52,748 nucleotides of DNA from Escherichia phage LF82-19. The stretch is taken from sequence record PV660457; one strand, 5' to 3'. A program made the translations under genes and the position numbers. The notes under the pieces were generated by a model. It was given only the letters and a program-made list of their open reading frames with translations. It was not told the origin of the DNA and ran no database searches. This document shows positions 19,284 to 52,238 of this stretch, piece by piece. The stretch's first letter is position 1; every line of letters begins with the position of its first letter.

Positions 19284-19312
19284 AAGGGAGCCTTGCGGCT
19301 CCCTCTTTTTTT
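19284..19312. terminator. bidirectional terminator between convergent J and minus-strand genes
   Basis: GGGAGCC-ttgc-GGCTCCC flanked by T-run on + and A-run (T on minus). Confidence 0.55.
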
Positions 19313-19643
19313 ACATCACTTTATTGTAGATAACCGGGCTTCGGCTGGTTTGCTGGGTAATCATGTCAAGCTTGTATTCAGCGCCGCGATTCCACTCGAA
19401 GCGTAGCGTATAAGTGTTTACGTCGCCGTAGCACATTACGTGTTTGAACTTGCGCAGGTGCTTATCAAATATCACGTTTGTGCTTTCTTCAATATTCACC
19501 GTCCGATCCTGGCAGTTTACAACCGCCACGGTTGAGCCAGTAAGAGACATTCTGGAAGCGTCAACCGGATATCCGATATTAACGTTCAAAGCCATAGCGT
19601 TTAAAGGAGCTAAGAGAGCCATAGCGAGCATGATTTTTTCCAT
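19311..19643 (-). CDS. secreted small protein (signal peptide)
   Basis: start at MEKIM (RBS GAGGAA 7 nt upstream); N-terminus MLAMALLAPLNAMA looks like a signal peptidase I substrate; track ORF to 19688 is an extension. Confidence 0.45.
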   Translation of the reverse strand: MEKIMLAMALLAPLNAMALNVNIGYPVDASRMSLTGSTVAVVNCQDRTVNIEESTNVIFDKHLRKFKHVMCYGDVNTYTLRFEWNRGAEYKLDMITQQTSRSPVIYNKVM

Positions 19644-19674
19644 TGGTGTTTCCTCGATTCGTTTATTTAAATTG

Positions 19675-19717
19675 ATTATATCCACCAATCAGGGCGCGTG
19701 CTTAGCAATTCGTGCTA
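19675..19717 (-). promoter_or_regulatory. palindrome TAGCA-N5-TGCTA plus -10 TATAAT (22-nt gap)
   Basis: on minus: TAA-TAGCACGAATTGCTA, 22 nt, TATAAT; precedes secreted protein gene. Confidence 0.5.
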
Positions 19718-20368
19718 TTAGTTCCACCCAAGGAATCGAGCCATTGGAATCTTTAGGTTTCCGCGACCGTTGAAAATATCATTAAACCCTCGCTGATTTC
19801 GTCTGATCCATGTAGTCTGCAACTCCGAGCCAGTCCAGCGCATGAGGTTGCCAGAGTAACCAGAGGCAACGCCATCCGTTGACATTTCACCCATGCAGGA
19901 CTCCCACAGAAAGAATGGGTTGTAACCAGGTGATACGCTGGCAACGTTACCCTCAAGAGGCCAATTCCCGGCAACCTCAAGGAAGCCAGTTACACGAGGC
20001 ATTGAGGCAGCGCCCAAAGCAGACCAGATCAGTTGCCCGGAACCGTCGAACACGTCAAGCACGCCAGATGGAAAGTTTGCGTTTCTGGTTGTCCTGATCA
20101 CGCGGATTGAGTTTGGTAGGAACATATCAGATCCCGGAAACCCCCACGCGCCGTTAGAAAGAAATTGCACCCAATGCAAATATCCGTCTTGCTTCCTCGT
20201 GTTTTGGTTTAGGTAAGCCAGTGAGCTTATGTTGCCAAAAGGTGTGTTTAGGTTGTAGTCACCAGTATTTAAATATGACGGGTTGAAAGATGAGTGGTAG
20301 ATCGTGTGTTTCTGATCTGAGTTAATCATCATCGCCCCGGCGTTATTGTATACCTCAAAACCAGGCAT
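19718..20368 (-). CDS. hypothetical protein (MPG-paralog, long)
   Basis: 216 aa; shares MPG(F/L) N-terminus and (F/W)DGSG(Q/N)LI motif with the upstream 99-aa ORF. Confidence 0.45.
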   Translation of the reverse strand: MPGFEVYNNAGAMMINSDQKHTIYHSSFNPSYLNTGDYNLNTPFGNISSLAYLNQNTRKQDGYLHWVQFLSNGAWGFPGSDMFLPNSIRVIRTTRNANFPSGVLDVFDGSGQLIWSALGAASMPRVTGFLEVAGNWPLEGNVASVSPGYNPFFLWESCMGEMSTDGVASGYSGNLMRWTGSELQTTWIRRNQRGFNDIFNGRGNLKIPMARFLGWN

Positions 20369-20377
20369 ATTGCCCCC

Positions 20378-20677
20378 TCAGTTAAATTTGTAAATTTCGA
20401 TATCCATCGTCACATCGTTAAACGGGTTGCTTGTTGGTAGGTAGATAACATCAACAGCATTCTCACGCGTTACGCAAGCGTAAGCACTCCCTATGTAGAT
20501 GTTTGCGTATTTGATGCAAGCAAACGAGTTGTAACCGTTTATTCCGACAACAGCAAAAGACACGATCGAAGTCGAGCGCGGGAACACGATTTGCTGACGA
20601 TGCACAAAGCGAGTGCTGAAATCTCCGAGATCCACAATCAGATTTCCCGACCCATCCCATGCTTGTAAACCAGGCAT
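20378..20677 (-). CDS. hypothetical protein (MPG-paralog, short)
   Basis: 99 aa; RBS GAGGTGG; paralog of 19718-20368. Confidence 0.45.
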   Translation of the reverse strand: MPGLQAWDGSGNLIVDLGDFSTRFVHRQQIVFPRSTSIVSFAVVGINGYNSFACIKYANIYIGSAYACVTRENAVDVIYLPTSNPFNDVTMDIEIYKFN

Positions 20678-20712
20678 AATGCCACCTCGTGAGTTTGTTT
20701 GATTGAGTGCAA

Positions 20713-20741
20713 ATAATACACCAGCGAGCAGACAAAATCAA
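20713..20741 (-). promoter_or_regulatory. sigma70-like promoter for the minus-strand MPG operon
   Basis: on minus: TTGATT - 17 nt - TATTAT. Confidence 0.35.
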
Positions 20742-21115
20742 AGTCAACATGTCGTTCCTGTAGTTAGCTGTTAAGAAAATCACTTTCCGGCGATTTCGAT
20801 ACACGCAACTACAGAAAACTACAGCGTTATACATTGCGTAAGTATATATATAATAAGGGTTTATCTAATATTATTATTATTACTATATTCATGTTGTAGT
20901 TAGTGTAACGGTATCGTTTGGTGATTCCCGGATATCTTTTCGAATAGTTGAGTTAATTGTGTGGTTATTAGGATGCCGATACCTGGCTACCCCTCCGCAA
21001 TCCGCGTTAAAATCGATACACGCAACTACAGTCAGCATTCATGCGGGTTTGAAGGGTGTTTTTTGTAACGAATGCCATTATCGACAAAAAATAACACTAA
21101 CGACACGTTATATAT

Positions 21116-21143
21116 TTGACAAAGCGAATGAACCGCGTATACT
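21116..21143 (+). promoter_or_regulatory. strong sigma70-like early promoter
   Basis: TTGACA - 16 nt - TATACT, about 35 nt upstream of the exonuclease gene. Confidence 0.55.
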
Positions 21144-21176
21144 CAGCCACATCAACCACAACTGAGGAATAAAGTG

Positions 21177-22232
21177 ATGAATCCAACAAGACCTGAATCA
21201 GATTTTTTCTGGTTCACCAGCGATAAAATGCCGAACGATTTTTACCACGACAAAGAGGCATGGACTTTTGATTTCGTATCAGGCTCCAGCCTTTGCGACA
21301 TTCACCAATCGTCACCCGCTTCATGGTTCTTCGCCAAAAACGAGATCACAAAGGCGCTTGAGTTTGGTACTCAGTCACACACCAACTTTGAATCGAAGTC
21401 GCTGTTTGATGCAACGTATCGACGCGCACCAGCCCCGGAAGACTTCGAAAACTTGATTACGTCTCAGGCAGCGCTGGCTACGAAGTTGAAATCATTCGGC
21501 CTGACTGGTACAAGCGGGAAGCAATATCCAGAGCTGATCAAAATGATGGTTGATTGCGGTGAAGATCTTAACGTGTTGTGGCTTATTGATATGATCGCAC
21601 AGTGCCAGGCTTGGGCTGATGGCGTTGAGTTGGTCAAGGCTGAGGATTACGACAAGTGCAAGATGATGCGCGCCGTTCTGGAATCAGTGCCGGAATACGC
21701 AATGATGATGGAAAGCCCAACGGCAATGCACGAGCTTTCATTGTTCGGAAAGATCAGCGGCGTTGACGTAAAAGTCAGACTTGACTACGTTGACACGGTT
21801 ACTGATCCAAACCTCATTCGTCATTTTGGGTACGATCCAGAGCTACACCCTGAAATCATTGTGATTATGGACTACAAAACGACGAGCAGCGCCAACCCGG
21901 CAGATTTTGACCGAAAGGCATTCGATCTTGGGTATTATCTGAAGATGGCATTGCAGCGTGATTTATTCGTCAAAGTGTACGATGAGAAGCGCCCCGTTTG
22001 CTTGGTTCTGCTTACACAGGAAAAGAAAGAGCCATTCTTGCCACTTGGAAGGCCAATGACGCGCGAGCAGCTTCTTTTAGGCCGCAAGCAGTATATGGGT
22101 GTCATTCACACTTACTCGATCTGCAAGGAATCAAACGTTTGGCCTGGCTATGCAAACGGCGCTCCTTTCGTTAGCCTTGAAACGCCTGACTACATCAAGC
22201 GCCAGCATAAGGATATTTTCGGCGGAGAGTAA
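21177..22232 (+). CDS. PD-(D/E)xK-type exonuclease (putative recombination exonuclease)
   Basis: ATG 21177 with RBS GAGGAA; D ... IMDYKTT motif resembles D-(D/E)xK; adjacent to annealase and SSB. Confidence 0.45.
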   Translation: MNPTRPESDFFWFTSDKMPNDFYHDKEAWTFDFVSGSSLCDIHQSSPASWFFAKNEITKALEFGTQSHTNFESKSLFDATYRRAPAPEDFENLITSQAALATKLKSFGLTGTSGKQYPELIKMMVDCGEDLNVLWLIDMIAQCQAWADGVELVKAEDYDKCKMMRAVLESVPEYAMMMESPTAMHELSLFGKISGVDVKVRLDYVDTVTDPNLIRHFGYDPELHPEIIVIMDYKTTSSANPADFDRKAFDLGYYLKMALQRDLFVKVYDEKRPVCLVLLTQEKKEPFLPLGRPMTREQLLLGRKQYMGVIHTYSICKESNVWPGYANGAPFVSLETPDYIKRQHKDIFGGE

Positions 22233-22274
22233 TAGCACTAAAAGCTAAACAAAAGCGGTGATGTTTGGTATAAT
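22233..22274 (+). promoter_or_regulatory. palindrome variant TAGCA-N5-AGCTA plus hairpin with TATAAT
   Basis: TAA-TAGCACTAAAAGCTA, 21 nt, TATAAT inside hairpin AGCGGTGA ... TCACCGCT. Confidence 0.45.
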
Positions 22275-22311
22275 CACCGCTCAATCAAACGAACGAAAAG
22301 AGGCATAAGCA

Positions 22312-22971
22312 ATGCGAACTTCAGAAAGTATTATCAATGTTTCAAAGGCTCTCATCGAGGCGAAAAAGAAATTTGCCATCGCCAAAAAATCCGGTTTTAA
22401 CAAACACCTCAACTCCCATTATTCAAACCTGACGGATGTATTGGAGGCGATCGAGCCAGCGCTGAAAGAGCTTGATTTGATGGTTATTCAGTCAAACCTT
22501 GAAAGCACGACAGATAAGGTTATGCACATCGAAACGCTGATCCTTCATACATCCGGCGAATGGCTTGCATTCCAGTACAACATGCCTATAGAGAAAATCC
22601 AGGCTCAGGCATACGGCTCAACAACATCATACGGGCGACGTTATGCACTTTGTGCCGCGCTCAGCATCACTCAGAGCGACGACGACGCAGAGATCGCGAA
22701 ACGCACCGCGTCGGATTACAAAAAGCTGGTAGCAGATTGCAACGATATCGAGGCGCTTGGAACCATTTACCAAAGTGCCAAGCAATCACTCGGAGCGGCA
22801 GAGTGGAAAATTGCAGAGGAGCATTTGCGCAAACGCAAAGCAGAATTGCAAGCCGGAACGGCGCGAGGATTTAACCCACCTCAAAAGCAGGAAGCGCCAA
22901 AGAAACAAAATCAGGTTGAAGAGAAGCCACAACATCCGGTAGACTCTCAAAACATCGAAGACTTTAACTAA
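22312..22971 (+). CDS. single-strand annealing protein (ERF-like, putative)
   Basis: 219 aa between exonuclease and SSB; YGRRYAL segment; Lys/Gln-rich C-terminus. Confidence 0.45.
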   Translation: MRTSESIINVSKALIEAKKKFAIAKKSGFNKHLNSHYSNLTDVLEAIEPALKELDLMVIQSNLESTTDKVMHIETLILHTSGEWLAFQYNMPIEKIQAQAYGSTTSYGRRYALCAALSITQSDDDAEIAKRTASDYKKLVADCNDIEALGTIYQSAKQSLGAAEWKIAEEHLRKRKAELQAGTARGFNPPQKQEAPKKQNQVEEKPQHPVDSQNIEDFN

Positions 22972-23012
22972 ACCAAAGGGGGCGAAAGCCCCCTCACTAA
23001 CAGGAAATCAAA

Positions 23013-23498
23013 ATGCCGCACATCATCACAGGTGAGATCAAAAAAGCCCCGTACACCAAAGACGGAAGCAACAATAACGGGCGATGGAAAATGTACATTG
23101 TCGATCTGAGTGAGCGCATGAAAGTGCGCAACCCTGACACACAGGCCGATGAAGTTGTTTACACAAACTACAAGGCAACCTTCTTTGCAAAAGAAAACGT
23201 CATGCAGTGGTACGATGAAGCGTTCCAGGTTGGCAAGGTAATCAGCGTAACGTGTGACACGCTGCAAATCACCAGCCGAGATCACAACGGCAATACGTAT
23301 CTTACGGCTGAAATGATCCGGCCTCAACTGACCTTCAGCCAGCGAGAGGCTCAGCAGCAGGGATGGGGGCAACCACAGCAGCCGCAAGGCAATCAGCAAC
23401 AAAGCCAGCACAGACCACCACAGCAGCGACCACAGCAGCGACCACAGCAGCAACAGCCACAGCAGGGAAATCAGTTTGACGATGACATTCCATTCTGA
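23013..23498 (+). CDS. ssb: single-stranded DNA-binding protein
   Basis: C-terminal DDDIPF acidic tip, the E. coli SSB-type tip, preceded by Gln/Pro-rich linker; OB-fold-sized N-terminal domain. Confidence 0.7.
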   Translation: MPHIITGEIKKAPYTKDGSNNNGRWKMYIVDLSERMKVRNPDTQADEVVYTNYKATFFAKENVMQWYDEAFQVGKVISVTCDTLQITSRDHNGNTYLTAEMIRPQLTFSQREAQQQGWGQPQQPQGNQQQSQHRPPQQRPQQRPQQQQPQQGNQFDDDIPF

Positions 23499-23535: not shown

Positions 23536-25752
23536 TTTCAGCAATAACGACTCAAGTTTAGCAAGGCGCTCTTCCATTTCCTCCATTCTGTTACCCATGT
23601 AAACCATAGCACAGGCCATATCAGTAAGCATGACGTTTGAATCAAGAGCTAGCGTATCGTCCTTAAATCCAGTCTCGATCTGCCTGGCAACGTACTCCTC
23701 ACCATTCTCGTTGACTCCGATAACATCTTCAAAGATCGGAGCGCCAGGGACTACTTTCACATACTGACTATCAACTTTATTCAAGTCCTGAGCAATCAGA
23801 CCGAATCTCTGTGTGTCAGATCCCTTATACTTGAACATGGTTGGGAGCCACTGCATTACGCGATCATAGCTCTCCTTTCCTTCGGTGTATTTGATATCCC
23901 ACTTAAGATCCCGGTCAGACGTTGGCGCTTTCTGGAATGTATACCCCCCATCCCATCCTCCACCCTGACCCCATGAGATAATATCTGATGATGGTGCATG
24001 GAATTCAAATCCGCGATGGTACGCACCATCACCAAGCATCTTAATTACTGCGCGAGGCCATCCGTTGTTCCCGCTAGAAATCATACCAAGAGAGGTATTC
24101 ATTCGATACCCGCCAGTTGATGTGGTTGCCCCTGAGATCAATGAAGCATATCCGGCATCATTACCCGTTACATCACCAGCAAAGAACGTACTCCCCATGT
24201 AATCATTTGGCTGCGCCCAACCTCCTTGAGTTAACTTACCAAGAAACCCCCTTGGAGAAGATATGTGACCGCCGTATGAGTTTATGAATTTAAACTCCTT
24301 CCAGTCACTTCCTTGGTTGTTCACTCCGATCTTGAAGTGATCAATATCAGTGCCACTACCGCGAACCCCCCCAATCTGCCAGTAACCAGAGTACCAGTTA
24401 CCTTGAACCAGGTTAACCCAACTATTAACAGAGCCATCACCAGCAGCGTTTTGAATCAGGATGTTTTTGTTTCCGCCACTCTGAGTTGAAACAACGATCG
24501 ATTTACCCTGCTTTGCCTCTACGTTTCCGTTTGTTGCAACCAGAGCGCCGCCGCTAATCGTTCCGACGGCTGTCAGCGATGCAACTCCGGTAATGTTCCC
24601 CGCCTCATCAAACTGATAGTAGTTCCCCTTTCCTCCAGCCGTGTTTGCCGTGTGAATCGTTGTCTTTACAACGCCGCCTTGTAGTTCATTGTAAAATCTT
24701 GAGTTTGATTGCAGCGTTGCGCCGTCAGCAGAAAGCCTTTTACTCTCAATCAGCCCCCCACTAGTTGCTGAGCCAAGTGTTGTAGCCTCCACGCCTCCAA
24801 ATCTCACCGCTTGACCCGAGCCGATACCAAGATTGTTTCTTGCTCCGTCAGCAGTTGTTGATCCAGTGCCACCAGATCCGATAGGGATCGGGATTACATT
24901 TCCGTTACTATCCTGCCACTGGAAAATCCCATCATCGCCAATCGTCAGCCTTTTTGTTCTATCTGGCGTGCTAATGTAGTTACGCGTTCCAATGTGGCGC
25001 AGCCAGTCAAGATCAAGGTTCGTCCTCGCGGCTTGTACGTCAGTAAGATCAGATAGGTTATTTGCCTTCTTTAGCTGTTCGTCAGGGTTAGCCGTTGCTG
25101 CGCGGTCTGCTTCAGCCTTGGCTCGTGCTGCATCGTCACGAGCGGCGGCGGCAGATTGCCCGGCGCTGGTTTCGCTGTTTGCTGCATTCGTCTCGCTTAC
25201 CCTGGCGGCATCCTTGCTGGCTCCGGCTTGGGTTGCGGCAACTTCGGCGGCAACGCGTTGCTGATAAGCTTGCTGGTTCTGGCTTCCGGCCTCGCTTGCA
25301 CTTTGTGCGGCGGCGTTCTTGCTTGCCTCAGCTTCGTTTGCGTTAACTTCAGTACGATCAGCATCAACGCGAACGGCAGACTGAAGATCTTTCAGCTCTT
25401 GCAGGTTAAAGTTCTTGAAGAAATCCATAGCCTCCTCGATCACAGTTTCCTTGCTTTGGTAGTAGCGCAGAGTTTCAGCCACATCTTGAGCAAGGCCATC
25501 AACAGTGATTGAGTCATGCAGCAGGATTACATAGTTCGTACCATCCGGCACAACTGCATCATCCGTTTGGATCGCTCGCATTTCCGTGTCACTCACGATC
25601 GCGGAAATAGTAACCAGCGTTAGTGGTTGAGTTAAAAACACCATCGTTGCCCCAACGCGAATCAGAGACAGCTTGTCTTGCCATTTCGTATCAACGCCAG
25701 TTACAACGCCGTTAGCGGCCAATCCCGCCGTTCCTCTACGATAAATCGCCAT
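23533..25752 (-). CDS. tail fiber with C-terminal peptidase S74 intramolecular chaperone domain
   Basis: C-terminus DRDLKWDIKY ... GLIAQDL ... LAKLESLL typical of the autocleaving chaperone domain of fibers/endosialidases; Gly/Ser/Thr-rich beta-like middle; start at ATG 25752. Confidence 0.75.
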   Translation of the reverse strand: MAIYRRGTAGLAANGVVTGVDTKWQDKLSLIRVGATMVFLTQPLTLVTISAIVSDTEMRAIQTDDAVVPDGTNYVILLHDSITVDGLAQDVAETLRYYQSKETVIEEAMDFFKNFNLQELKDLQSAVRVDADRTEVNANEAEASKNAAAQSASEAGSQNQQAYQQRVAAEVAATQAGASKDAARVSETNAANSETSAGQSAAAARDDAARAKAEADRAATANPDEQLKKANNLSDLTDVQAARTNLDLDWLRHIGTRNYISTPDRTKRLTIGDDGIFQWQDSNGNVIPIPIGSGGTGSTTADGARNNLGIGSGQAVRFGGVEATTLGSATSGGLIESKRLSADGATLQSNSRFYNELQGGVVKTTIHTANTAGGKGNYYQFDEAGNITGVASLTAVGTISGGALVATNGNVEAKQGKSIVVSTQSGGNKNILIQNAAGDGSVNSWVNLVQGNWYSGYWQIGGVRGSGTDIDHFKIGVNNQGSDWKEFKFINSYGGHISSPRGFLGKLTQGGWAQPNDYMGSTFFAGDVTGNDAGYASLISGATTSTGGYRMNTSLGMISSGNNGWPRAVIKMLGDGAYHRGFEFHAPSSDIISWGQGGGWDGGYTFQKAPTSDRDLKWDIKYTEGKESYDRVMQWLPTMFKYKGSDTQRFGLIAQDLNKVDSQYVKVVPGAPIFEDVIGVNENGEEYVARQIETGFKDDTLALDSNVMLTDMACAMVYMGNRMEEMEERLAKLESLLLK

Positions 25753-25775
25753 TGTCAACACCTCTTGTTAGTAAA

Positions 25776-25790
25776 TAGCACGAATTGCTA
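25776..25790. promoter_or_regulatory. palindrome TAGCACGAATTGCTA downstream of tail-fiber -10
   Basis: lies between the extended -10 and the RBS of the tail fiber gene, opposite in orientation to early-promoter copies. Confidence 0.45.
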
Positions 25791-25796
25791 AAACGC

Positions 25797-25851: not shown

Positions 25852-26787
25852 TTACTCCAGTCTGTCAATAAGAGATTGCGGATCGTATAGCCTACGCTGC
25901 ATCCCCTGGCGGAAATTGTCATTGTTCGGCAAGATTACCCTCAGATCCCGATCGTCAGCCATGCACAGGGTTTGGTAATCGGTAGACAGGCAAGCAACGC
26001 GAAGCTCACGATCTCCTTTGTATCGCCAAGCCACAATTTCAAGGTTCTCGGGCGTGAAAGTGACCCATACTTCCTGATTGGTTGCCGTCGCTACGCGATG
26101 CCCTTCGATTATGTCGCACACCAGATAAATAGAGCCAGTGCCAGCACCAAGCTTAACAACTGAACCGCGAGAATGATCGCGAGCCATAAAAGAATATTCC
26201 CCACTTTCATTAACAAACAGGATATTACACATTTCATCATCCAATCCTTCCGGTTGAGCGAGATAGCACGGATATGCATGAATAAGCGATTCTCCGCCAT
26301 TCTCGCGAGGTTTTACGCCTACAATGAATGATTCATCCAATAGGCACTCATAAACGCTTAGAGGCGTGCTGGCTCGCAATTCAGTGCGCTCCATAACAGC
26401 CATACAGGCATCGTGATCAACTTGCTTGCCAATATTGGCATCGGTTGTTCTCGCTATGCGCTTGTAAGCCTTCACGCGGTACTCTTGCGGAACCTTGCCC
26501 AAGAAGCGCCCCAGGATGTTAACCGCCTCGCTGTATGGCTCACCAGTCAGCTTCATGACCCAGCCAATGCCTTTATCGTTACCGCATGCGTTACAGATCG
26601 CCCCGCCGTCACCCTTCGACTCAAGGTTATCAGTCCAGCGGAAGCGGTCATTGCCGCCACAGTTTGGGCATGGCTGGTGTTTGCCATTGAATACGGTTGA
26701 GGGAAGAGCGCATATTGACTGCAACGCCTCGCGCCATAATCCTTTCATGTATGGCAAAACTTCCTCTTTCTGGTACATCATCGACAT
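25852..26787 (-). CDS. DNA primase (zinc ribbon + TOPRIM-like)
   Basis: N-terminal CPNCGG ... CNACG four-Cys zinc ribbon; followed by acidic-motif catalytic region. Confidence 0.6.
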   Translation of the reverse strand: MSMMYQKEEVLPYMKGLWREALQSICALPSTVFNGKHQPCPNCGGNDRFRWTDNLESKGDGGAICNACGNDKGIGWVMKLTGEPYSEAVNILGRFLGKVPQEYRVKAYKRIARTTDANIGKQVDHDACMAVMERTELRASTPLSVYECLLDESFIVGVKPRENGGESLIHAYPCYLAQPEGLDDEMCNILFVNESGEYSFMARDHSRGSVVKLGAGTGSIYLVCDIIEGHRVATATNQEVWVTFTPENLEIVAWRYKGDRELRVACLSTDYQTLCMADDRDLRVILPNNDNFRQGMQRRLYDPQSLIDRLE

Positions 26788-26842: not shown

Positions 26843-27301
26843 TCATTGATTAGCTTTTCGTGCTTTCAGTGTTTTCCAGGATGGTTGCTCCGGCTTGGTT
26901 TCTAACTCTTCCTTTCTCACCACGCGCAGCATGTGACGCTTTTTGCATCGGACTGTTAGCGGCTTGCCGTTGCCGTCGAATGACAGATCAGGGCGGCACC
27001 ACGACGCGCGGAAACCTCCGCCATTTCGTTTATATGCGTTGTGCGCCAGTTGCGCGCCTCGCGCTGAAATCATGCCGCGTTGCCGCCACTCATAAACAAC
27101 CTGAAGCGAAACGCGCAATTCTTTCGCCAGCTTTGCAGGTGAGCCGTAGAATTCAAGGATGGTATCTAATCTAGCCTTAAGCCCGGCCTTTACTTCGTCT
27201 CGTAAAACATAGTAACCTACTGGACGTTTTCGGCGCTTAGCGTCACTTCCGCGCTTCGTTCCATTGTTCCCATTAAGCGTGCGTTTATCTACGGTTTCCA
27301 T
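26843..27301 (-). CDS. HTH DNA-binding protein (Cro/YdaS-like, putative regulator)
   Basis: AKLAKELRVSLQVVYEWRQRG HTH-like segment; basic N- and C-termini; divergent from helicase promoter. Confidence 0.5.
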   Translation of the reverse strand: METVDKRTLNGNNGTKRGSDAKRRKRPVGYYVLRDEVKAGLKARLDTILEFYGSPAKLAKELRVSLQVVYEWRQRGMISARGAQLAHNAYKRNGGGFRASWCRPDLSFDGNGKPLTVRCKKRHMLRVVRKEELETKPEQPSWKTLKARKANQ

Positions 27302-31746: not shown

Positions 31747-32883
31747 ATGTCACTGAAGAAAATCACCGACGAGCAGTTAAACGCCGAGCGAGAGTCGGGT
31801 AAAACTTACCGCCAGATCGCGGAAGAGTACGGAATGAACATACGCACCGTCGAGGCTCGCGGCGCACGCCTGGCTAAGAAAGGTTTCGGTCACGGTAACG
31901 GCGATGCATCGCGATTTGTTCCAGAAGGCTTCATGGTTAAGGGCACATCAACCATGCACCGCGCGAACGGAGAGGTTATCGTTAGCTGGACGAAAACCAA
32001 TCAGGATCATGAGAAGTTAGCCGCCATGCTTGAGCACGCGATCGAGGCGTTTTGCGTTGAGCTTCCACGCGCAGCCGCTACACCTTCCAACGTTGGTGAG
32101 GTGATGGAGAACCAGCTCGCGCTTTATCCTGTATTCGATCTGCATATCGGTGCAATGGCTCATAAGCATGAGTGCGGCGAGAACTACTCAACCGATATTG
32201 CCGAGAAGGTTTTGGGCGATTTCTTCAAGTACGCTGTGAACGTTGCGCCGAAGGCGAAGAAGGCGGTTGTGCTGGTTGGCGGTGACTACCTCCACTCTGA
32301 CGGCCTGGACGCTGTAACACCCGCAAGCGGTCACGTTCTGGATCAGGACTCACGTTACGCTAAGCTGGTTCACGTTGCCATTCGCTCACTCCGTCGCGGC
32401 GTTGCGCTTCTGCTTGATAAGCATGAAGAGATTGAGATCCAGATTATCGAAGGCAACCACGATCAGGCGGGTATGATTTGGCTACGCGCTGCAATGGCGG
32501 CATACTTCGAAGATGAGCCGCGCGTCACGGTTGACACATCGCCTATGATCCTTCACCGTACCAAGTGGGGCAAAACGCTGTTAGGCTACACTCACGGTCA
32601 CACGATGAAGAAAGCAGAAACCCGCCTCCAGGCGCTGGCTACTGACTTCCGTTCTGAGTTCGGCACGAGTGAATTCGTTTATACTCACTCAGGGCATTGG
32701 CATCACCAGACGCTTACAGAGCACACCTTAGGCATTGACGAGGTTCACGGTCAGTTAGGTGCCAAAGATGCGTATGCGGCTCGCGGTGGATGGCGCTCAT
32801 ATCGCCAGGCGGCGGTAATTGTCTATGATAAAGAATTTGGCGAGGTAGGCCGATTCGTTTATCGTCCTCAGATGAGCAAATAG
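31747..32883 (+). CDS. HTH domain fused to calcineurin-like metallophosphoesterase
   Basis: N-terminal TYRQIAEEYGMNIRTVEARGARL HTH; then DLHIG, GGDYLHSDG, EGNHD, GHTH, GHWHH metallophosphatase motifs. Confidence 0.6.
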   Translation: MSLKKITDEQLNAERESGKTYRQIAEEYGMNIRTVEARGARLAKKGFGHGNGDASRFVPEGFMVKGTSTMHRANGEVIVSWTKTNQDHEKLAAMLEHAIEAFCVELPRAAATPSNVGEVMENQLALYPVFDLHIGAMAHKHECGENYSTDIAEKVLGDFFKYAVNVAPKAKKAVVLVGGDYLHSDGLDAVTPASGHVLDQDSRYAKLVHVAIRSLRRGVALLLDKHEEIEIQIIEGNHDQAGMIWLRAAMAAYFEDEPRVTVDTSPMILHRTKWGKTLLGYTHGHTMKKAETRLQALATDFRSEFGTSEFVYTHSGHWHHQTLTEHTLGIDEVHGQLGAKDAYAARGGWRSYRQAAVIVYDKEFGEVGRFVYRPQMSK

Positions 32884-32923
32884 CACTTTTTGTTAAAAGC
32901 CGATCGCGTTGGTCGGCTATACT
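32881..32923 (+). promoter_or_regulatory. palindrome TAGCA-N5-TGTTA plus hairpin with TATACT
   Basis: TAG stop is the first half-site; 22-nt gap. Confidence 0.5.
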
Positions 32924-35024: not shown

Positions 35025-36611
35025 TTACCCCAGCAAGCGTGGATTAACGTAAATCTTATCACCGATCAGGCAAGTGTAATTCTTCTCGTCAAGCATCGGC
35101 AGCAAGTGATCTTTGATTCGTGTCATTGTTCCGGCCTGGCCTTCGAATGGTCGAACCTTGCGCGCGGCCTCGTAAAGCGCCCGAAGACCAACAACGCCCT
35201 TCCCCTGCTTTCCGCTCTTGATCAGCAAGTCAATAAGCTTGTTCATTTCTGCTGAATCGCCAGCGTGCCCGGCAGACGACGCGGAAGAAAGATAGGTCTT
35301 GCTCAGCTCGTTAAACATGATCACGGCCTCCTGCATTGTGTCAAGCTCAATCTCTCGACTCTTCGGCGCATTGCTTCCGTTTGGTGAGAACCAGTTACGG
35401 ATCACATGCAGAACCGACGCGATACGAATCGCCTGTTTATCGAACTTGCCCAGCGCACCGCGTAACATGGTGTGCGAGTATTTCCCGCCGTCTGCCAAGT
35501 GTGGCTCCATCGCCTGGCGTGCGTTGTTAAGGTACTTCATCGCGCTCTTGCTCACCGTGAGCTTAACGTCAACCTCACTCATGATGGCGTGTATCAGCTT
35601 GAAGTAATCAGCTTTCAGGCCGCCGTCAATAGGCTCGTAAGTTGACTCGCCATTGTCATTCACGAAAACACGCTCACCAAGGAATGACTTCTCACGAACC
35701 AGCAAGAAACGCTCAGAAACACCGATACCGCGCGCACCTGCATTCATGATCGCGTTGATTGTCTCGTCCTGCGCGATAACCGAAATACAACCCATAGCCA
35801 CGAATGACATGTTGTTATCAGCGTTCGCACGAGCGATAGACACGTTCCCTGCATCCCATGCTTTCAGCACAAGCTCGCTGTTTGTCTTCTTCGAACCGTC
35901 ACCATACGTCATGCCCAACAGGCTGTTAACGGATGTCGCTTCGTCCGAGATCACAGCGAAGTTGCCTTGACGGTTGTTAATGCGTGCCAAGCCTTCAGGC
36001 GTGGTATCTGAAACAGGGAAAACGATATCGCAAAGGCGCTCAAGCTTCTCTTCAAGATCCTCTTTCTCCTCAAACAGCGAGGCCATTTCAGATGGCGCTT
36101 TCTCCTGTTTCATTTCCTTCGCCAGCGCAGACAGTTTGGCGAGAATCTTTTTACGCTCACGCTTACGAGCCTCGTTGAGTCGCTCAGTCTCCGCGATCAT
36201 TGGCGCGATGGATAGCGAGTTGATTGCGGATTTCCCCGTTGATGGTGGCTGACTGGTTACAACGTAGAGCGCAGTTGGTTGTTGCGTTCCGTGATAGTCA
36301 ACCGTGAACCTACCCAGCATGGCGGCAGACACGCAACCTACAAAGTGCATATAGGCTGAAGACTCAGGGAATTGAACCGATCTCGCGGCGTTGCGTGAGA
36401 GCTTGCCGACCACATCACTATCGTTGCCCAGGGAAATAACAGGATATTTATCATTACCTGAATCAATCTCTACCGGAGCCTTCCAGAAGGATTGGGATTG
36501 ACGATATCCATTCGCATTTATGGCAACGCGGAGCGGCGGCAACCCTTCGGCCTTTGCAACCTCGATCACTTGTTCCGGCGAAAGTTTATCATCATTGAAA
36601 ATATCGAACAT
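35025..36611 (-). CDS. P-loop NTPase, putative replication helicase/initiator
   Basis: Walker A-like PPSTGKS; 528 aa; in replication gene neighbourhood. Confidence 0.45.
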   Translation of the reverse strand: MFDIFNDDKLSPEQVIEVAKAEGLPPLRVAINANGYRQSQSFWKAPVEIDSGNDKYPVISLGNDSDVVGKLSRNAARSVQFPESSAYMHFVGCVSAAMLGRFTVDYHGTQQPTALYVVTSQPPSTGKSAINSLSIAPMIAETERLNEARKRERKKILAKLSALAKEMKQEKAPSEMASLFEEKEDLEEKLERLCDIVFPVSDTTPEGLARINNRQGNFAVISDEATSVNSLLGMTYGDGSKKTNSELVLKAWDAGNVSIARANADNNMSFVAMGCISVIAQDETINAIMNAGARGIGVSERFLLVREKSFLGERVFVNDNGESTYEPIDGGLKADYFKLIHAIMSEVDVKLTVSKSAMKYLNNARQAMEPHLADGGKYSHTMLRGALGKFDKQAIRIASVLHVIRNWFSPNGSNAPKSREIELDTMQEAVIMFNELSKTYLSSASSAGHAGDSAEMNKLIDLLIKSGKQGKGVVGLRALYEAARKVRPFEGQAGTMTRIKDHLLPMLDEKNYTCLIGDKIYVNPRLLG

Positions 36612-41398: not shown

Positions 41399-41441
41399 AC
41401 TATAGCCGAAACATCCTGAGTGGTTTTAGCAAAAAGTGCTA
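41399..41441 (-). promoter_or_regulatory. palindrome TAGCA-N5-TGCTA plus -10 TATAGT
   Basis: 22-nt gap; leftmost promoter of the minus-strand early operon. Confidence 0.5.
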
Positions 41442-41562
41442 TTGATTCGATTTATCCAATTATTCCATTATTCCAACTATTCTGGAATATTCCTGAATAA
41501 CCGAATATCTGGAATAGTCAAAATGACTATGGCTCTCCGTTCGTTTTAGCGAACAAACGTTC

Positions 41563-41582
41563 GATGTGATGTGATGTGATGT
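41563..41582. repeat. (GATGT)x4 tandem repeat
   Basis: GATGTGATGTGATGTGATGT in divergent control region. Confidence 0.6.
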
Positions 41583-42015
41583 GAATGAGGGTGAGGAGGC
41601 GATCAGATCTGATCCCGAAACTTTTTCCCTCACCGCACGATTTGCTAATGAATTGTCGTGCCTGTAGTTGTATGTTGTGTTTTACGTTTTCCGTGGAAAT
41701 CGGTACGCGCTACTACGCGGAATAACAATGTTATGCTTTATATATAGATATATAAGTATATATAAAATAAAGGTTTTTTATTATATATATTATCTAATTT
41801 CATAACACTTTATAACGTGTTGTGTTTGTTCCGCCGGACGCGGAGTGATTGATATGTTTCGCGGCCTATTTATGCCTATATTGTGAAATATGGGTAGGGG
41901 GATATATACCCCTCCGAAATCCGCAACAAACGCTTAATACGCACTACAACCCAGCAGGAATGCACCATGTAGAGGAGATTTTGTTGATAATGGCAATAAT
42001 CGACACAAATTAATC

Positions 42016-42044
42016 TTGACTACAATTAAGCTTTTCCGCATTAT
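42016..42044 (+). promoter_or_regulatory. strong sigma70-like early promoter
   Basis: TTGACT - 17 nt - CATTAT, about 30 nt upstream of first plus-strand early gene. Confidence 0.55.
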
Positions 42045-50329: not shown

Positions 50330-50758
50330 ATGAAATTACGTTGCACATTCCTTGAGCCAGCTTTCGCAAAAGCTCTGGCTGAGTTCTACACCATCGGCAA
50401 AACTTACGCCGCATCCATCAAGCCGGGATCAAAGGTTGGCGCTGTGCTGGTGGAGTCAAACGAAGGCAATGAAGGCGATCAGCTTGCAGCAGTTCCGAGC
50501 CGCTCAGGGTTCGAGGTTCAAATTAAGAACCAAATTCCGATCGCAAAGTTCGAGGTTGTTGGCAAGCGTGCGGTGAAGCTTGTTAAGACTGAGAAGCGCG
50601 TAACGCTGAAACTTGATGGCGTGGGGAAATCAGATAAGCGCCGATTCCGCCGTGTTTGCCGCCAGTATCGAAAGTTGAAATTCATCAACCCTGGATTCTA
50701 TTATGATCTGGAATCCGATCGCCACATGGCTAAACTTGCGCGACATCACCGCCGATAG
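50330..50758 (+). CDS. MKLRC family protein
   Basis: MKLRCT ... FYTIGKTY; basic C-terminus; preceded by hairpin AAGGCCG-tttataatag-CGGCCTT. Confidence 0.5.
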   Translation: MKLRCTFLEPAFAKALAEFYTIGKTYAASIKPGSKVGAVLVESNEGNEGDQLAAVPSRSGFEVQIKNQIPIAKFEVVGKRAVKLVKTEKRVTLKLDGVGKSDKRRFRRVCRQYRKLKFINPGFYYDLESDRHMAKLARHHRR

Positions 50759-50798
50759 CACTTTTTGCTAAAACTCGAAATCGGGGTTGCGATATAGT
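50756..50798 (+). promoter_or_regulatory. palindrome TAGCA-N5-TGCTA plus hairpin with TATAGT
   Basis: hairpin GGGGTT ... AACCCC; 22-nt gap. Confidence 0.5.
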
Positions 50799-52150: not shown

Positions 52151-52238
52151 GGAAGGTTGGCAGAGTGGACGATCGCGCACGGTTGCTAACCGTCAAGCCG
52201 GAAACGGCTCAAGGGTTCGAATCCCTTACCTTCCACCA
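52151..52238 (+). tRNA. tRNA-Ser (anticodon GCU), class II with long variable arm
   Basis: acceptor GGAAGGT/ACCTTCC, anticodon loop TTGCTAA, variable stem GCCG-gaaa-CGGC, T-arm AAGGG-TTCGAAT-CCCTT, encoded ACCA end; D-stem and anticodon stem slightly imperfect. Confidence 0.6.

Follow-up and report, generated by a model that had tools for sequence, protein, structure and literature searches.

Repeats bracketing a TA-rich core upstream of recE in the T1-like Escherichia phage LF82-19: a possible replication origin combined with early promoters

The 52,748-nucleotide sequence of Escherichia phage LF82-19 (record PV660457), hereafter the window, is the whole genome of a T1-like siphophage with 99.9% identity to Escherichia phages LF82-10, -11, -12 and -40. 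We describe here a non-coding gap at 20678–21176, termed hub A, which according to the open reading frame (ORF) list and the LF82-10 annotation is 499 bp long rather than the 480 bp given in an earlier note on this sequence. To the left of hub A lies a leftward operon of three genes without known function (19311–20677), and to its right a rightward operon comprising recE (exonuclease VIII), erf and ssb (21177–23498). Judged from its sequence, hub A consists of a strong host-type early promoter for recE-erf-ssb and approximately 370 bp of upstream non-coding DNA with an origin-like build. We regard it as the best candidate to date for a replication origin in T1-like phages, although it could alternatively be a gene-control region only.

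Reading hub A from its left edge, a candidate leftward promoter (TTGATT-17-TATTAT; 20713–20741, minus strand) is encountered first, both hexamers of which are kept in phage HazelMika and nearly so in KLB19. Candidates for the divergent minus-strand promoter proposed in the earlier note match the consensus at only 9/12 positions. The outer-left copy of a short repeat, which we refer to as an iteron, follows on the minus strand at 20758–20765 as an exact AACTACAG (CTGTAGTT on the plus strand); the longer inverted core copy reported previously, CCTGTAGTTAGC, is present at 20757–20768. This iteron has a positional homolog at 41662–41669 in a second hub, hub B, and is intact in the relative L011 although the neighboring positions 20756 and 20769 are substituted there. 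The direct repeat of the earlier note, TCGATACACGCAACTACAG, was recovered as an exact 19-nt match on the plus strand at 20796–20814 and 21013–21031, with an iteron at the end of each copy. A second tandem iteron (AACTACAG; 20817–20824, plus strand) is located 10 bp, one helical turn, beyond the one that ends the first copy, immediately left of an AT core, and the segment 20792–20824 has zero substitutions relative to L011.

The core itself (20839–20899), previously noted as a very AT-rich block, is 84% A+T, includes the conserved sequence GTAAGTATATATATAATAAGGGTTTA as well as TATAAT-like hexamers, and is a candidate DNA-unwinding element. An iteron of opposite orientation (TTGTAGTT on the plus strand; 20894–20901, minus strand) marks its right edge, a place that it also holds in L011 and L012. 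The resulting layout has plus-strand copies at 20807 and 20817 left of the core and a minus-strand copy at 20894 on the right, where it is the only exact copy. Beyond the core are a conserved box, TACCCCTCCGCAATCCGCG (20988–21006, plus strand), with the exact TACCCCTCCG found in the window solely here and at 41907; the second copy of the direct repeat, at the place of which the relative L014 has two iterons; and an imperfect palindrome, TTTTTTGTAACGAATGCCATTATCGACAAAAAA (21059–21091), approximately 25 bp upstream of the −35 hexamer of the recE promoter. The palindrome shares 94% identity over 17 nt with the reverse strand of its hub B counterpart (41979–41995), and the segment 21054–21101 has zero substitutions relative to L011. 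A degenerate promoter-proximal iteron, AACGACA (21099–21105, plus strand), lies 10 nt upstream of the −35 hexamer and reads AACTACA in L011 (G21102T). The sigma-70 promoter itself, P(recE), was correctly identified in the earlier note as TTGACA-16-TATACT at 21116–21143 (plus strand); it matches the consensus at 11/12 positions, and 33 bp separate the end of its −10 hexamer from the recE start codon. Its hexamers, together with the downstream CCACATCAACCACAA, are kept in KLB19, NBD2, ESCO41, L011 and L012, and ETEP102 matches the window at P(recE), where it has an annotated promoter. The module is situated between divergent promoters.

The repeats occur in excess of expectation. The 8-mer AACTACAG is present six times in 52.7 kb against 0.95 expected, a count that 0/100 shuffles reached, with four of the six copies in hub A and one in hub B. 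Alignment of 26 sites from four hubs resolved the repeat unit to a 6–7-mer, (A)ACTACA, with weak flanks; the full 12-mer allowing two mismatches was not enriched across the genome (7 versus 3.8 expected). Five ACTACA copies were counted in hub A (shuffle mean 0.37, maximum 3 in 500 shuffles), and 8/28 copies in the window genome fall in the two hubs. Most of those in hub A are 90–360 bp upstream of P(recE), arranged about the AT core rather than the promoters.

Hub B is a paralog of hub A. The earlier note had reported a 43-bp block approximately 75% identical between the two; the shared block is real, although its identity is 68% (30/44 columns), and the whole module, rather than this block alone, is paralogous by alignment and blastn. 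Hub A 20750–21105 is colinear with hub B 41654–42024 (plus strand), with 60% identity over 382 columns (E 9e-15), and this is the only such blastn match in the genome. The shared order consists of an outer-left inverted repeat copy, an element like the direct repeat, the TA-rich core (41739–41799 in hub B), the box TACCCCTCCG(C/A)AATCCGC (41907–41923), the exact 10-mer of which was found in the two hubs only, a second element like the direct repeat, the imperfect palindrome, and a rightward sigma-70-type promoter. In hub B, a promoter scan placed the last of these at 42016–42044 (TTGACT-17-CATTAT, plus strand), reaching slightly past 42024. Three ACTACA sites of hub B, with k-mer positions 41663(−), 41943(+) and 42019(+), are positional homologs of hub A sites; the homolog of direct repeat copy 2 is ACGCACTACAACC, with ACTACA at 41943–41948, and TTGACTACA overlaps the −35 hexamer. 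The left part of hub B, outside the paralogy with hub A, carries a TATTCCA/TGGAATA cluster (4 copies) and a (GATGT)4.4 tandem array (41455–41516 and 41563–41584), elements also present in hub B of T1 and HazelMika. The T1 GenBank record (NC_005833, our L008; 48675–48836) begins, with a 2.8-kb terminal repeat, inside the hub B equivalent, within GATGTGAT repeats and 162 bp from the start of gene ST1, and a link between the pac end and the left part of hub B is therefore possible.

Relatives were found via RecE and primase homologs from metagenomes. The function suggested in the earlier note presupposed repeats that are conserved in related phages, and the ACTACA positions are indeed kept in L011, L012 and L014. 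L011, with a RecE 93% identical and a hub 90% identical to those of the window, keeps all repeat copies, while RecE identity is 70% for L012 and 68% for L014, the hubs of which are otherwise strongly diverged. Hub A contains 5 ACTACA copies in the window, 6 in L011, 7 in L012 and 11 in L014, compared with shuffle means of 0.4–0.6, and no shuffle in 500 equalled these counts. A tandem iteron pair with 10–11 bp spacing is found left of the core at the equal place in L011, L012 and L014. The right edge of the core in L014 carries a cluster of +, + and − copies that includes the palindrome ACTACATGTAGT, which in L012 is situated left of the core, and both relatives have copies after the conserved box. 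Directly upstream of the −35 hexamer are two exact direct copies and a one-mismatch copy (AGCTACAG) in L012, and one copy plus a palindrome in L014. ACTACA is missing from the hubs of four other lineages. A RecE-anchored IMG/VR search found no relative when the query was a single protein, and only two loci when it was the alignment; the exact 17-mer AACTACAGAAAACTACA had 36 IMG/VR matches and at least 120 metagenome matches, none of which, among the matches listed, was T1-like by tblastn.

The architecture recurs across the family with different repeats. Genomes compared were HazelMika, KLB19 and NBD2 (all three Vilniusvirus), T1, JohannLBurckhardt (Henuseptimavirus) and Sushi (Webervirus), and, together with the window, HazelMika, T1, JohannLBurckhardt and Sushi provided five complete Drexlerviridae genomes. 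In 5/5 of these, no 60-bp duplex window is less stable than the two hub cores (z 5.1–6.5; next best 3.0–4.1); the hub A core of LF82-19 is the second least stable 60-bp duplex of its genome (z 5.5) and the hub B core the first. All 14 ATATATA heptamers of the window genome are inside the two hubs, and across genomes (TA)n heptamers are almost restricted to hubs (14/14, 18/20 and 5/5). The short motif that is enriched in both hubs differs from lineage to lineage: TGTTACA in T1 (6/6 genome copies in hubs), TGTTAT in Vilniusvirus (13/30) and GTAAGAT in Sushi (12/17, 16-bp palindromes among them). Paralogy between the AT-core regions of the two hubs is also detectable in T1, JohannLBurckhardt and Sushi, and the distance from the core center to the left edge of the hub is 178–190 bp in 8/8 hub A sequences. 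The AT-core sequence GTAAGTATATATAwAATAArGGTTT and the box CCnCCG-AAATCCGCG are kept across genera, the former in Vilniusvirus hubs and L012, and boxes related to TACCCCTCCGCAATCCGCG were found in hubs of HazelMika, KLB19, NBD2, JohannLBurckhardt, L012, L014 and Sushi.

Two further arrangements were observed in this comparison. In Klebsiella phage Sushi (L010, 23595–26350), the recE-erf-ssb operon and hub A are inverted and relocated beside the primase gene; hub A lies there between a terminator and P(recE) as an imperfect palindrome of approximately 300 bp centered on the AT core, and two motif copies build the stem of the primase terminator. In the metagenomic phage L018 (4502–5203; ENA ERZ28615363), hub B contains ACGCAATGGTTACAT and an AT core that recur near-verbatim in hub A of the ESCO41-type L007, making L018/L007 a further lineage with a common flank motif in both hub classes.

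Because the repeat positions are kept in diverged relatives, the repeats are considered to be under selection within an ACTACA specificity group. Selection on ACTACA here and other motifs at equal places elsewhere points to a phage-encoded factor co-evolving with the repeats, rather than a host factor, as the probable reader of the sites. Candidates for this factor were sought among the replication genes recognized with Pfam, namely a primase, a Cro/YdaS-like helix-turn-helix (HTH) protein, an SNF2-type helicase, a VRR-NUC nuclease and a DUF3987 helicase. The DUF3987 helicase (annotated "DNA helicase"; 35025–36611, minus strand), a candidate initiator-helicase and putative partner of the hubs, has a high-confidence predicted MCM-like AAA+ fold with a C-terminal winged helix (residues 451–521), and structural relatives of the model include Cch of the staphylococcal cassette chromosome mec (SCCmec) and PriRep of the Staphylococcus aureus pathogenicity island (SaPI) SaPI5. 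The primase (25852–26787, minus strand), also a presumed partner, is of the T7 gp4/DnaG type with zinc-binding and TOPRIM domains and without an extra DNA-binding domain. Apart from the HTH protein (26843–27301), no HTH regulator is annotated. Neither this protein nor the helicase had a significant match among PDB sequences, and no DNA-binding candidate emerged when the genes that flank the two hubs were scanned with Pfam and PHROGs. Hub A is 4.7 kb from the primase gene and approximately 14 kb from the helicase gene, and hub B is 4.8 kb upstream of the latter.

Co-variation with the motif was compared among these proteins. The HTH protein, which is approximately 70% identical across genera with differing motifs, does not track the ACTACA group and was rejected as the repeat reader: identity is 67% to L012 (same motif) and 71% to HazelMika (other motif), and the recognition helix varies within the group. 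In the helicase winged helix, the window and HazelMika share the same presumed recognition helix and have a nearly identical wing despite their differing motifs, and co-variation gives no support for this domain as the reader. Identities of the SNF2 helicase, VRR-NUC, Dam, RecE and the HTH protein likewise fail to separate the ACTACA group. The primase is the replication protein that appears to track the group best (identities of 96, 85 and 74% within it, 65% for HazelMika, and 52–61% for T1, JohannLBurckhardt and Sushi), which we regard as a weak lead. Three further contigs, unassigned to a motif group, have primases with 66–70% identity, L015 being at 70%. The contigs of primase homologs P0243, P0245 and P0247 stop short of recE, so that hub A is unreadable in them, and that of the helicase homolog P0002 stops short of hub B.

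Several classes of element were searched for in hub A and were not found. No ORF in hub A is conserved among the window, L011, L012 and L014, an Rfam scan of the whole window had nothing in hub A (a tRNA gene at 52151–52235, plus strand, is the sole match in the window), and RNA folding of the hub A halves and hub B (z −0.4, −2.3 and −1.5) gave no significant structure except for the left inverted repeat, which accounts for the z of −2.3. Neither hub has a DnaA box (TTWTNCACA) or an IHF consensus (WATCAANNNNTTR), and GATC clusters are absent. Hub A is intergenic, and no O- or P-type protein turned up when the replication genes and those flanking the hubs were scanned with Pfam. A DnaA-dependent oriC-like or lambda-like origin was rejected on these grounds, namely the lack of DnaA boxes, IHF sites, GATC clusters and an O-type initiator gene. 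Hub A is without any GATC and lies within the longest GATC-free interval of the genome (715 bp, 20629–21344), which otherwise has 6.6 GATC per kb and encodes a Dam methylase; a 715-bp gap is within expectation for 348 sites, and this gap is therefore probably a by-product of base composition. GC skew along the window tracks gene orientation and is therefore uninformative on replication. With respect to LF82-10, 147 bp (49 codons) are missing from the window at 25251–25307, in the tail-fiber gene, and the rest aligns at 99.996–100%; beyond 25307, the window coordinate equals the LF82-10 coordinate minus 147.

Hub A is also distinct from the 21-nt T1/TLS repeat aaATAGCACnnnTTGnTAAAA (PMC11447400), the other intergenic repeat that T1-like phages conserve. 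The latter differs in sequence and stands in single copies upstream of genes, unclustered around an AT core. As ATAGCACnnnTTGnTAAAA, this repeat has 24 copies in the window against 0.17 expected, e.g., at 25775–25793(+), 32880–32898(+), 41424–41442(−) and 50755–50773(+), and 0 of the 24 fall within 20678–21176. Of these, 23 were inspected, among them all sites with no more than one mismatch, and they run along gene direction; most have a −10-like hexamer approximately 22 nt downstream, with a GC hairpin and T-run between in many. The TLS paper gives the function of the repeat as unknown (PMC11447400); its appearance suggests a class of phage-specific promoters or a junction between terminator and promoter.

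Among known systems, the closest counterpart to hub A is the SaPI origin, in which 6–12 penta- or hexanucleotide iterons surround an AT-rich center, with at least two per side in opposite orientation; a self-loading helicase that has a cognate primase binds these iterons through its winged helix (PMC9371898). Hub A resembles SaPI and SCCmec Cch systems in its clustered short repeats (5 ACTACA in 499 bp versus 0.37 expected) and in an AT-rich center with oppositely oriented repeats on either side, although the window has one exact right copy where SaPI have at least two; moreover, this phage encodes a predicted winged-helix MCM-like helicase and a separate primase. It differs in that the SaPI origin is directly downstream of rep, whereas the hubs are 4.7–14 kb from the primase and helicase genes, in that every genome carries two copies, both of them fused to early promoters, and in that the winged helix shows no visible co-variation with the motif. 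Two separated loci with the same initiator-binding repeats by AT-rich DNA are a feature of Bacillus phage SPP1 (oriL/oriR) and satellite phage P4 (ori/crr). The initiators differ, however: SPP1 uses G38P, and P4 relies on the C-terminal domain of its alpha protein; no homolog of either was found here, where no search was aimed at them, and SPP1 oriL is intragenic. The T4 origins oriF and oriG and the T7 primary origin couple host-RNA-polymerase promoters to a very AT-rich segment, likewise in virulent, recombination-reliant phages; however, they have no iterons and the AT-rich element is downstream of the promoter, whereas here the AT core is between divergent promoters and is repeat-bracketed. 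Iterons around an AT-rich core beside promoters are a known kind of element, met here in a classical phage family. What is new beyond the earlier note, as far as the compared sequences indicate, is the presence of two paralogous copies per genome with lineage-specific motifs.

We tentatively favor the reading of hub A as a replication origin combined with early promoters, which we hold to be slightly short of an even chance, because its anatomy closely matches that of the SaPI origin and a T1-like origin is still unfound in the literature: two recent genome papers found none in T1-like phages (PMC11447400, PMC7718038), and in the literature we found no mapped T1 origin and no transcription-start map. 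The repeat excess, the kept repeat positions, the lineage motifs common to both hubs, the low duplex stability of the cores, the paralogy, the location between divergent promoters, the lack of a conserved ORF or structured RNA, and the encoded helicase and primase also count in its favor. Under this reading, a phage-encoded protein would bind the repeats flanking the core, the TA-rich core would then open, the MCM-like helicase (35025–36611) and the T7-type primase (25852–26787) would be loaded there, and host polymerase III would extend; at the promoter-proximal copies, the same repeat-binding protein may modulate P(recE). A more specific version, with two paralogous origins per genome (upstream of recE and in the early divergent region), specificity set by the T7-type primase and the MCM-like self-loading helicase rather than by a classical double-stranded DNA-binding initiator domain, and a family split into primase/iteron specificity groups, is improbable in our estimation.

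A number of observations weigh against an origin at hub A. DnaA boxes, IHF sites and GATC clusters are absent, though this excludes only oriC-like or lambda-like mechanisms. The helicase winged helix, in its presumed recognition helix and most of its wing, is unchanged despite the motif difference and is therefore not obviously the repeat reader, and, unlike the SaPI origin, the hub is not beside the helicase gene. The case for the primase is countered by its lack of a double-stranded DNA-binding domain and by a motif-tracking signal that is small and comes from few independent lineages. The core-flanking repeat copies are weaker in hub B, and certain copies abut or overlap −35 hexamers in the manner of operators. 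Finally, both hubs keep one orientation to the rightward operon and hub A always accompanies recE, which fits an upstream control region equally well.

These last points lead to the principal alternative, a purely transcriptional control region in which a phage regulator would use the repeats as operators or activator sites and so coordinate the early promoters of both hubs, with no origin and with the TA-rich core acting as bent or UP-like DNA or as a nucleoid-protein target. We consider this possible but rather doubtful. The near-consensus, conserved P(recE) is in its favor, as are repeats upstream of or overlapping −35 hexamers in L012, L014 and hub B, a module that is always upstream of the operon in one orientation and has moved with recE in Sushi, and palindromic sites such as ACTACATGTAGT and GTAAGATnnATCTTAC that suit dimeric HTH proteins. 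Phage lambda provides a precedent in OL and OR, two loci that flank divergent early operons and have one site specificity varying between related phages; nevertheless, the lambda sites are 17 bp, overlap promoters and have no AT-rich core, whereas those described here are mostly far upstream around an unwinding-type element. The distance of most copies from P(recE), and their organization on the AT core, are not readily explained by operators. Nor would operators require the two least stable duplexes of a genome, for which there is selection across the family. The sole annotated HTH protein fails to co-vary with the motif and no other DNA-binding protein was found beside the hubs, although other, unrecognized regulators are possible. 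The earlier note had proposed an origin and/or a regulator-bound control region; comparison among relatives supports selected binding-type sites around an AT core beside promoters, and the origin and transcriptional readings are compatible, sequence alone being inadequate to separate them.

The remaining explanations rank lower. It is quite improbable that the hubs are priming-signal origins, in which the T7/DnaG-type primase would recognize the lineage hexamers as template sites. The hexamers would border the unwinding element on both strands, with leading-strand primers entering the core from either side. Primases with zinc-binding and TOPRIM domains, the architecture found here, recognize short templates (GTC for T7, CTG for DnaG), and the complementary strand of the motif, CTGTAGTT, has CTG within; copies are oppositely oriented on the two sides of the core, and primase identity, alone among the replication proteins, separates the ACTACA group from known other-motif genomes. 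However, known primase sites are 3–5 nt rather than 7-nt repeats, the primase differences are spread over the TOPRIM and C-terminal parts while the zinc domain is the most conserved, only three semi-independent lineages are available (with L015, unassigned to a motif group, at 70%), and palindromic and promoter-proximal copies are left unexplained. Very unlikely, in our view, is a packaging or recombination site, either pac-like or a break/entry site for the adjacent RecE/Erf system, as the position of the T1 record start (GenBank position 1, the terminal repeat start) inside the hub B equivalent and the constant linkage of hub A to recE-erf-ssb could suggest: the T1 end is in GATGTGAT repeats of the hub B left part, outside the segment common with hub A, terminase logic fails to explain lineage-specific repeats around an AT core at two loci, and RecE does not track the motif. 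That a small RNA or protein is encoded in the hub, with the repeats incidental, has a remote probability. TATAAT-like hexamers in the AT core, the left-arm inverted repeat that folds at z = −2.3, and tiny ORFs annotated in hub B of HazelMika could be cited for it; set against these are the lack of an Rfam match, the weaker folding of the right halves (z −0.4 and −1.5), the lack of a conserved ORF even relative to the 90%-identical L011, and reading frames that do not agree between the two hubs over the conserved box. An absence of function, with chance repeats in an AT-rich spacer or a decaying duplication, is close to negligible; although the mismatched 12-mer is not enriched genome-wide, the AACTACAG count was unmatched in 100 shuffles and the hub ACTACA counts in 500, repeat positions are conserved in diverged relatives, and the architecture recurs in 5/5 family genomes.

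T1 belongs to the seven classical T phages; its RecE-type exonuclease is encoded in more than 1000 phage records of the collection searched. Two precise, conserved candidate loci per genome, with defined elements and candidate partners, make the origin question directly testable in this family. If the hubs are origins, the lineage motifs would define replication specificity groups within the Drexlerviridae, and such groups would bear on recombination between co-infecting phages and on the engineering of therapy phages. If the hubs are operators only, they would nonetheless mark out the family's early regulatory circuit.

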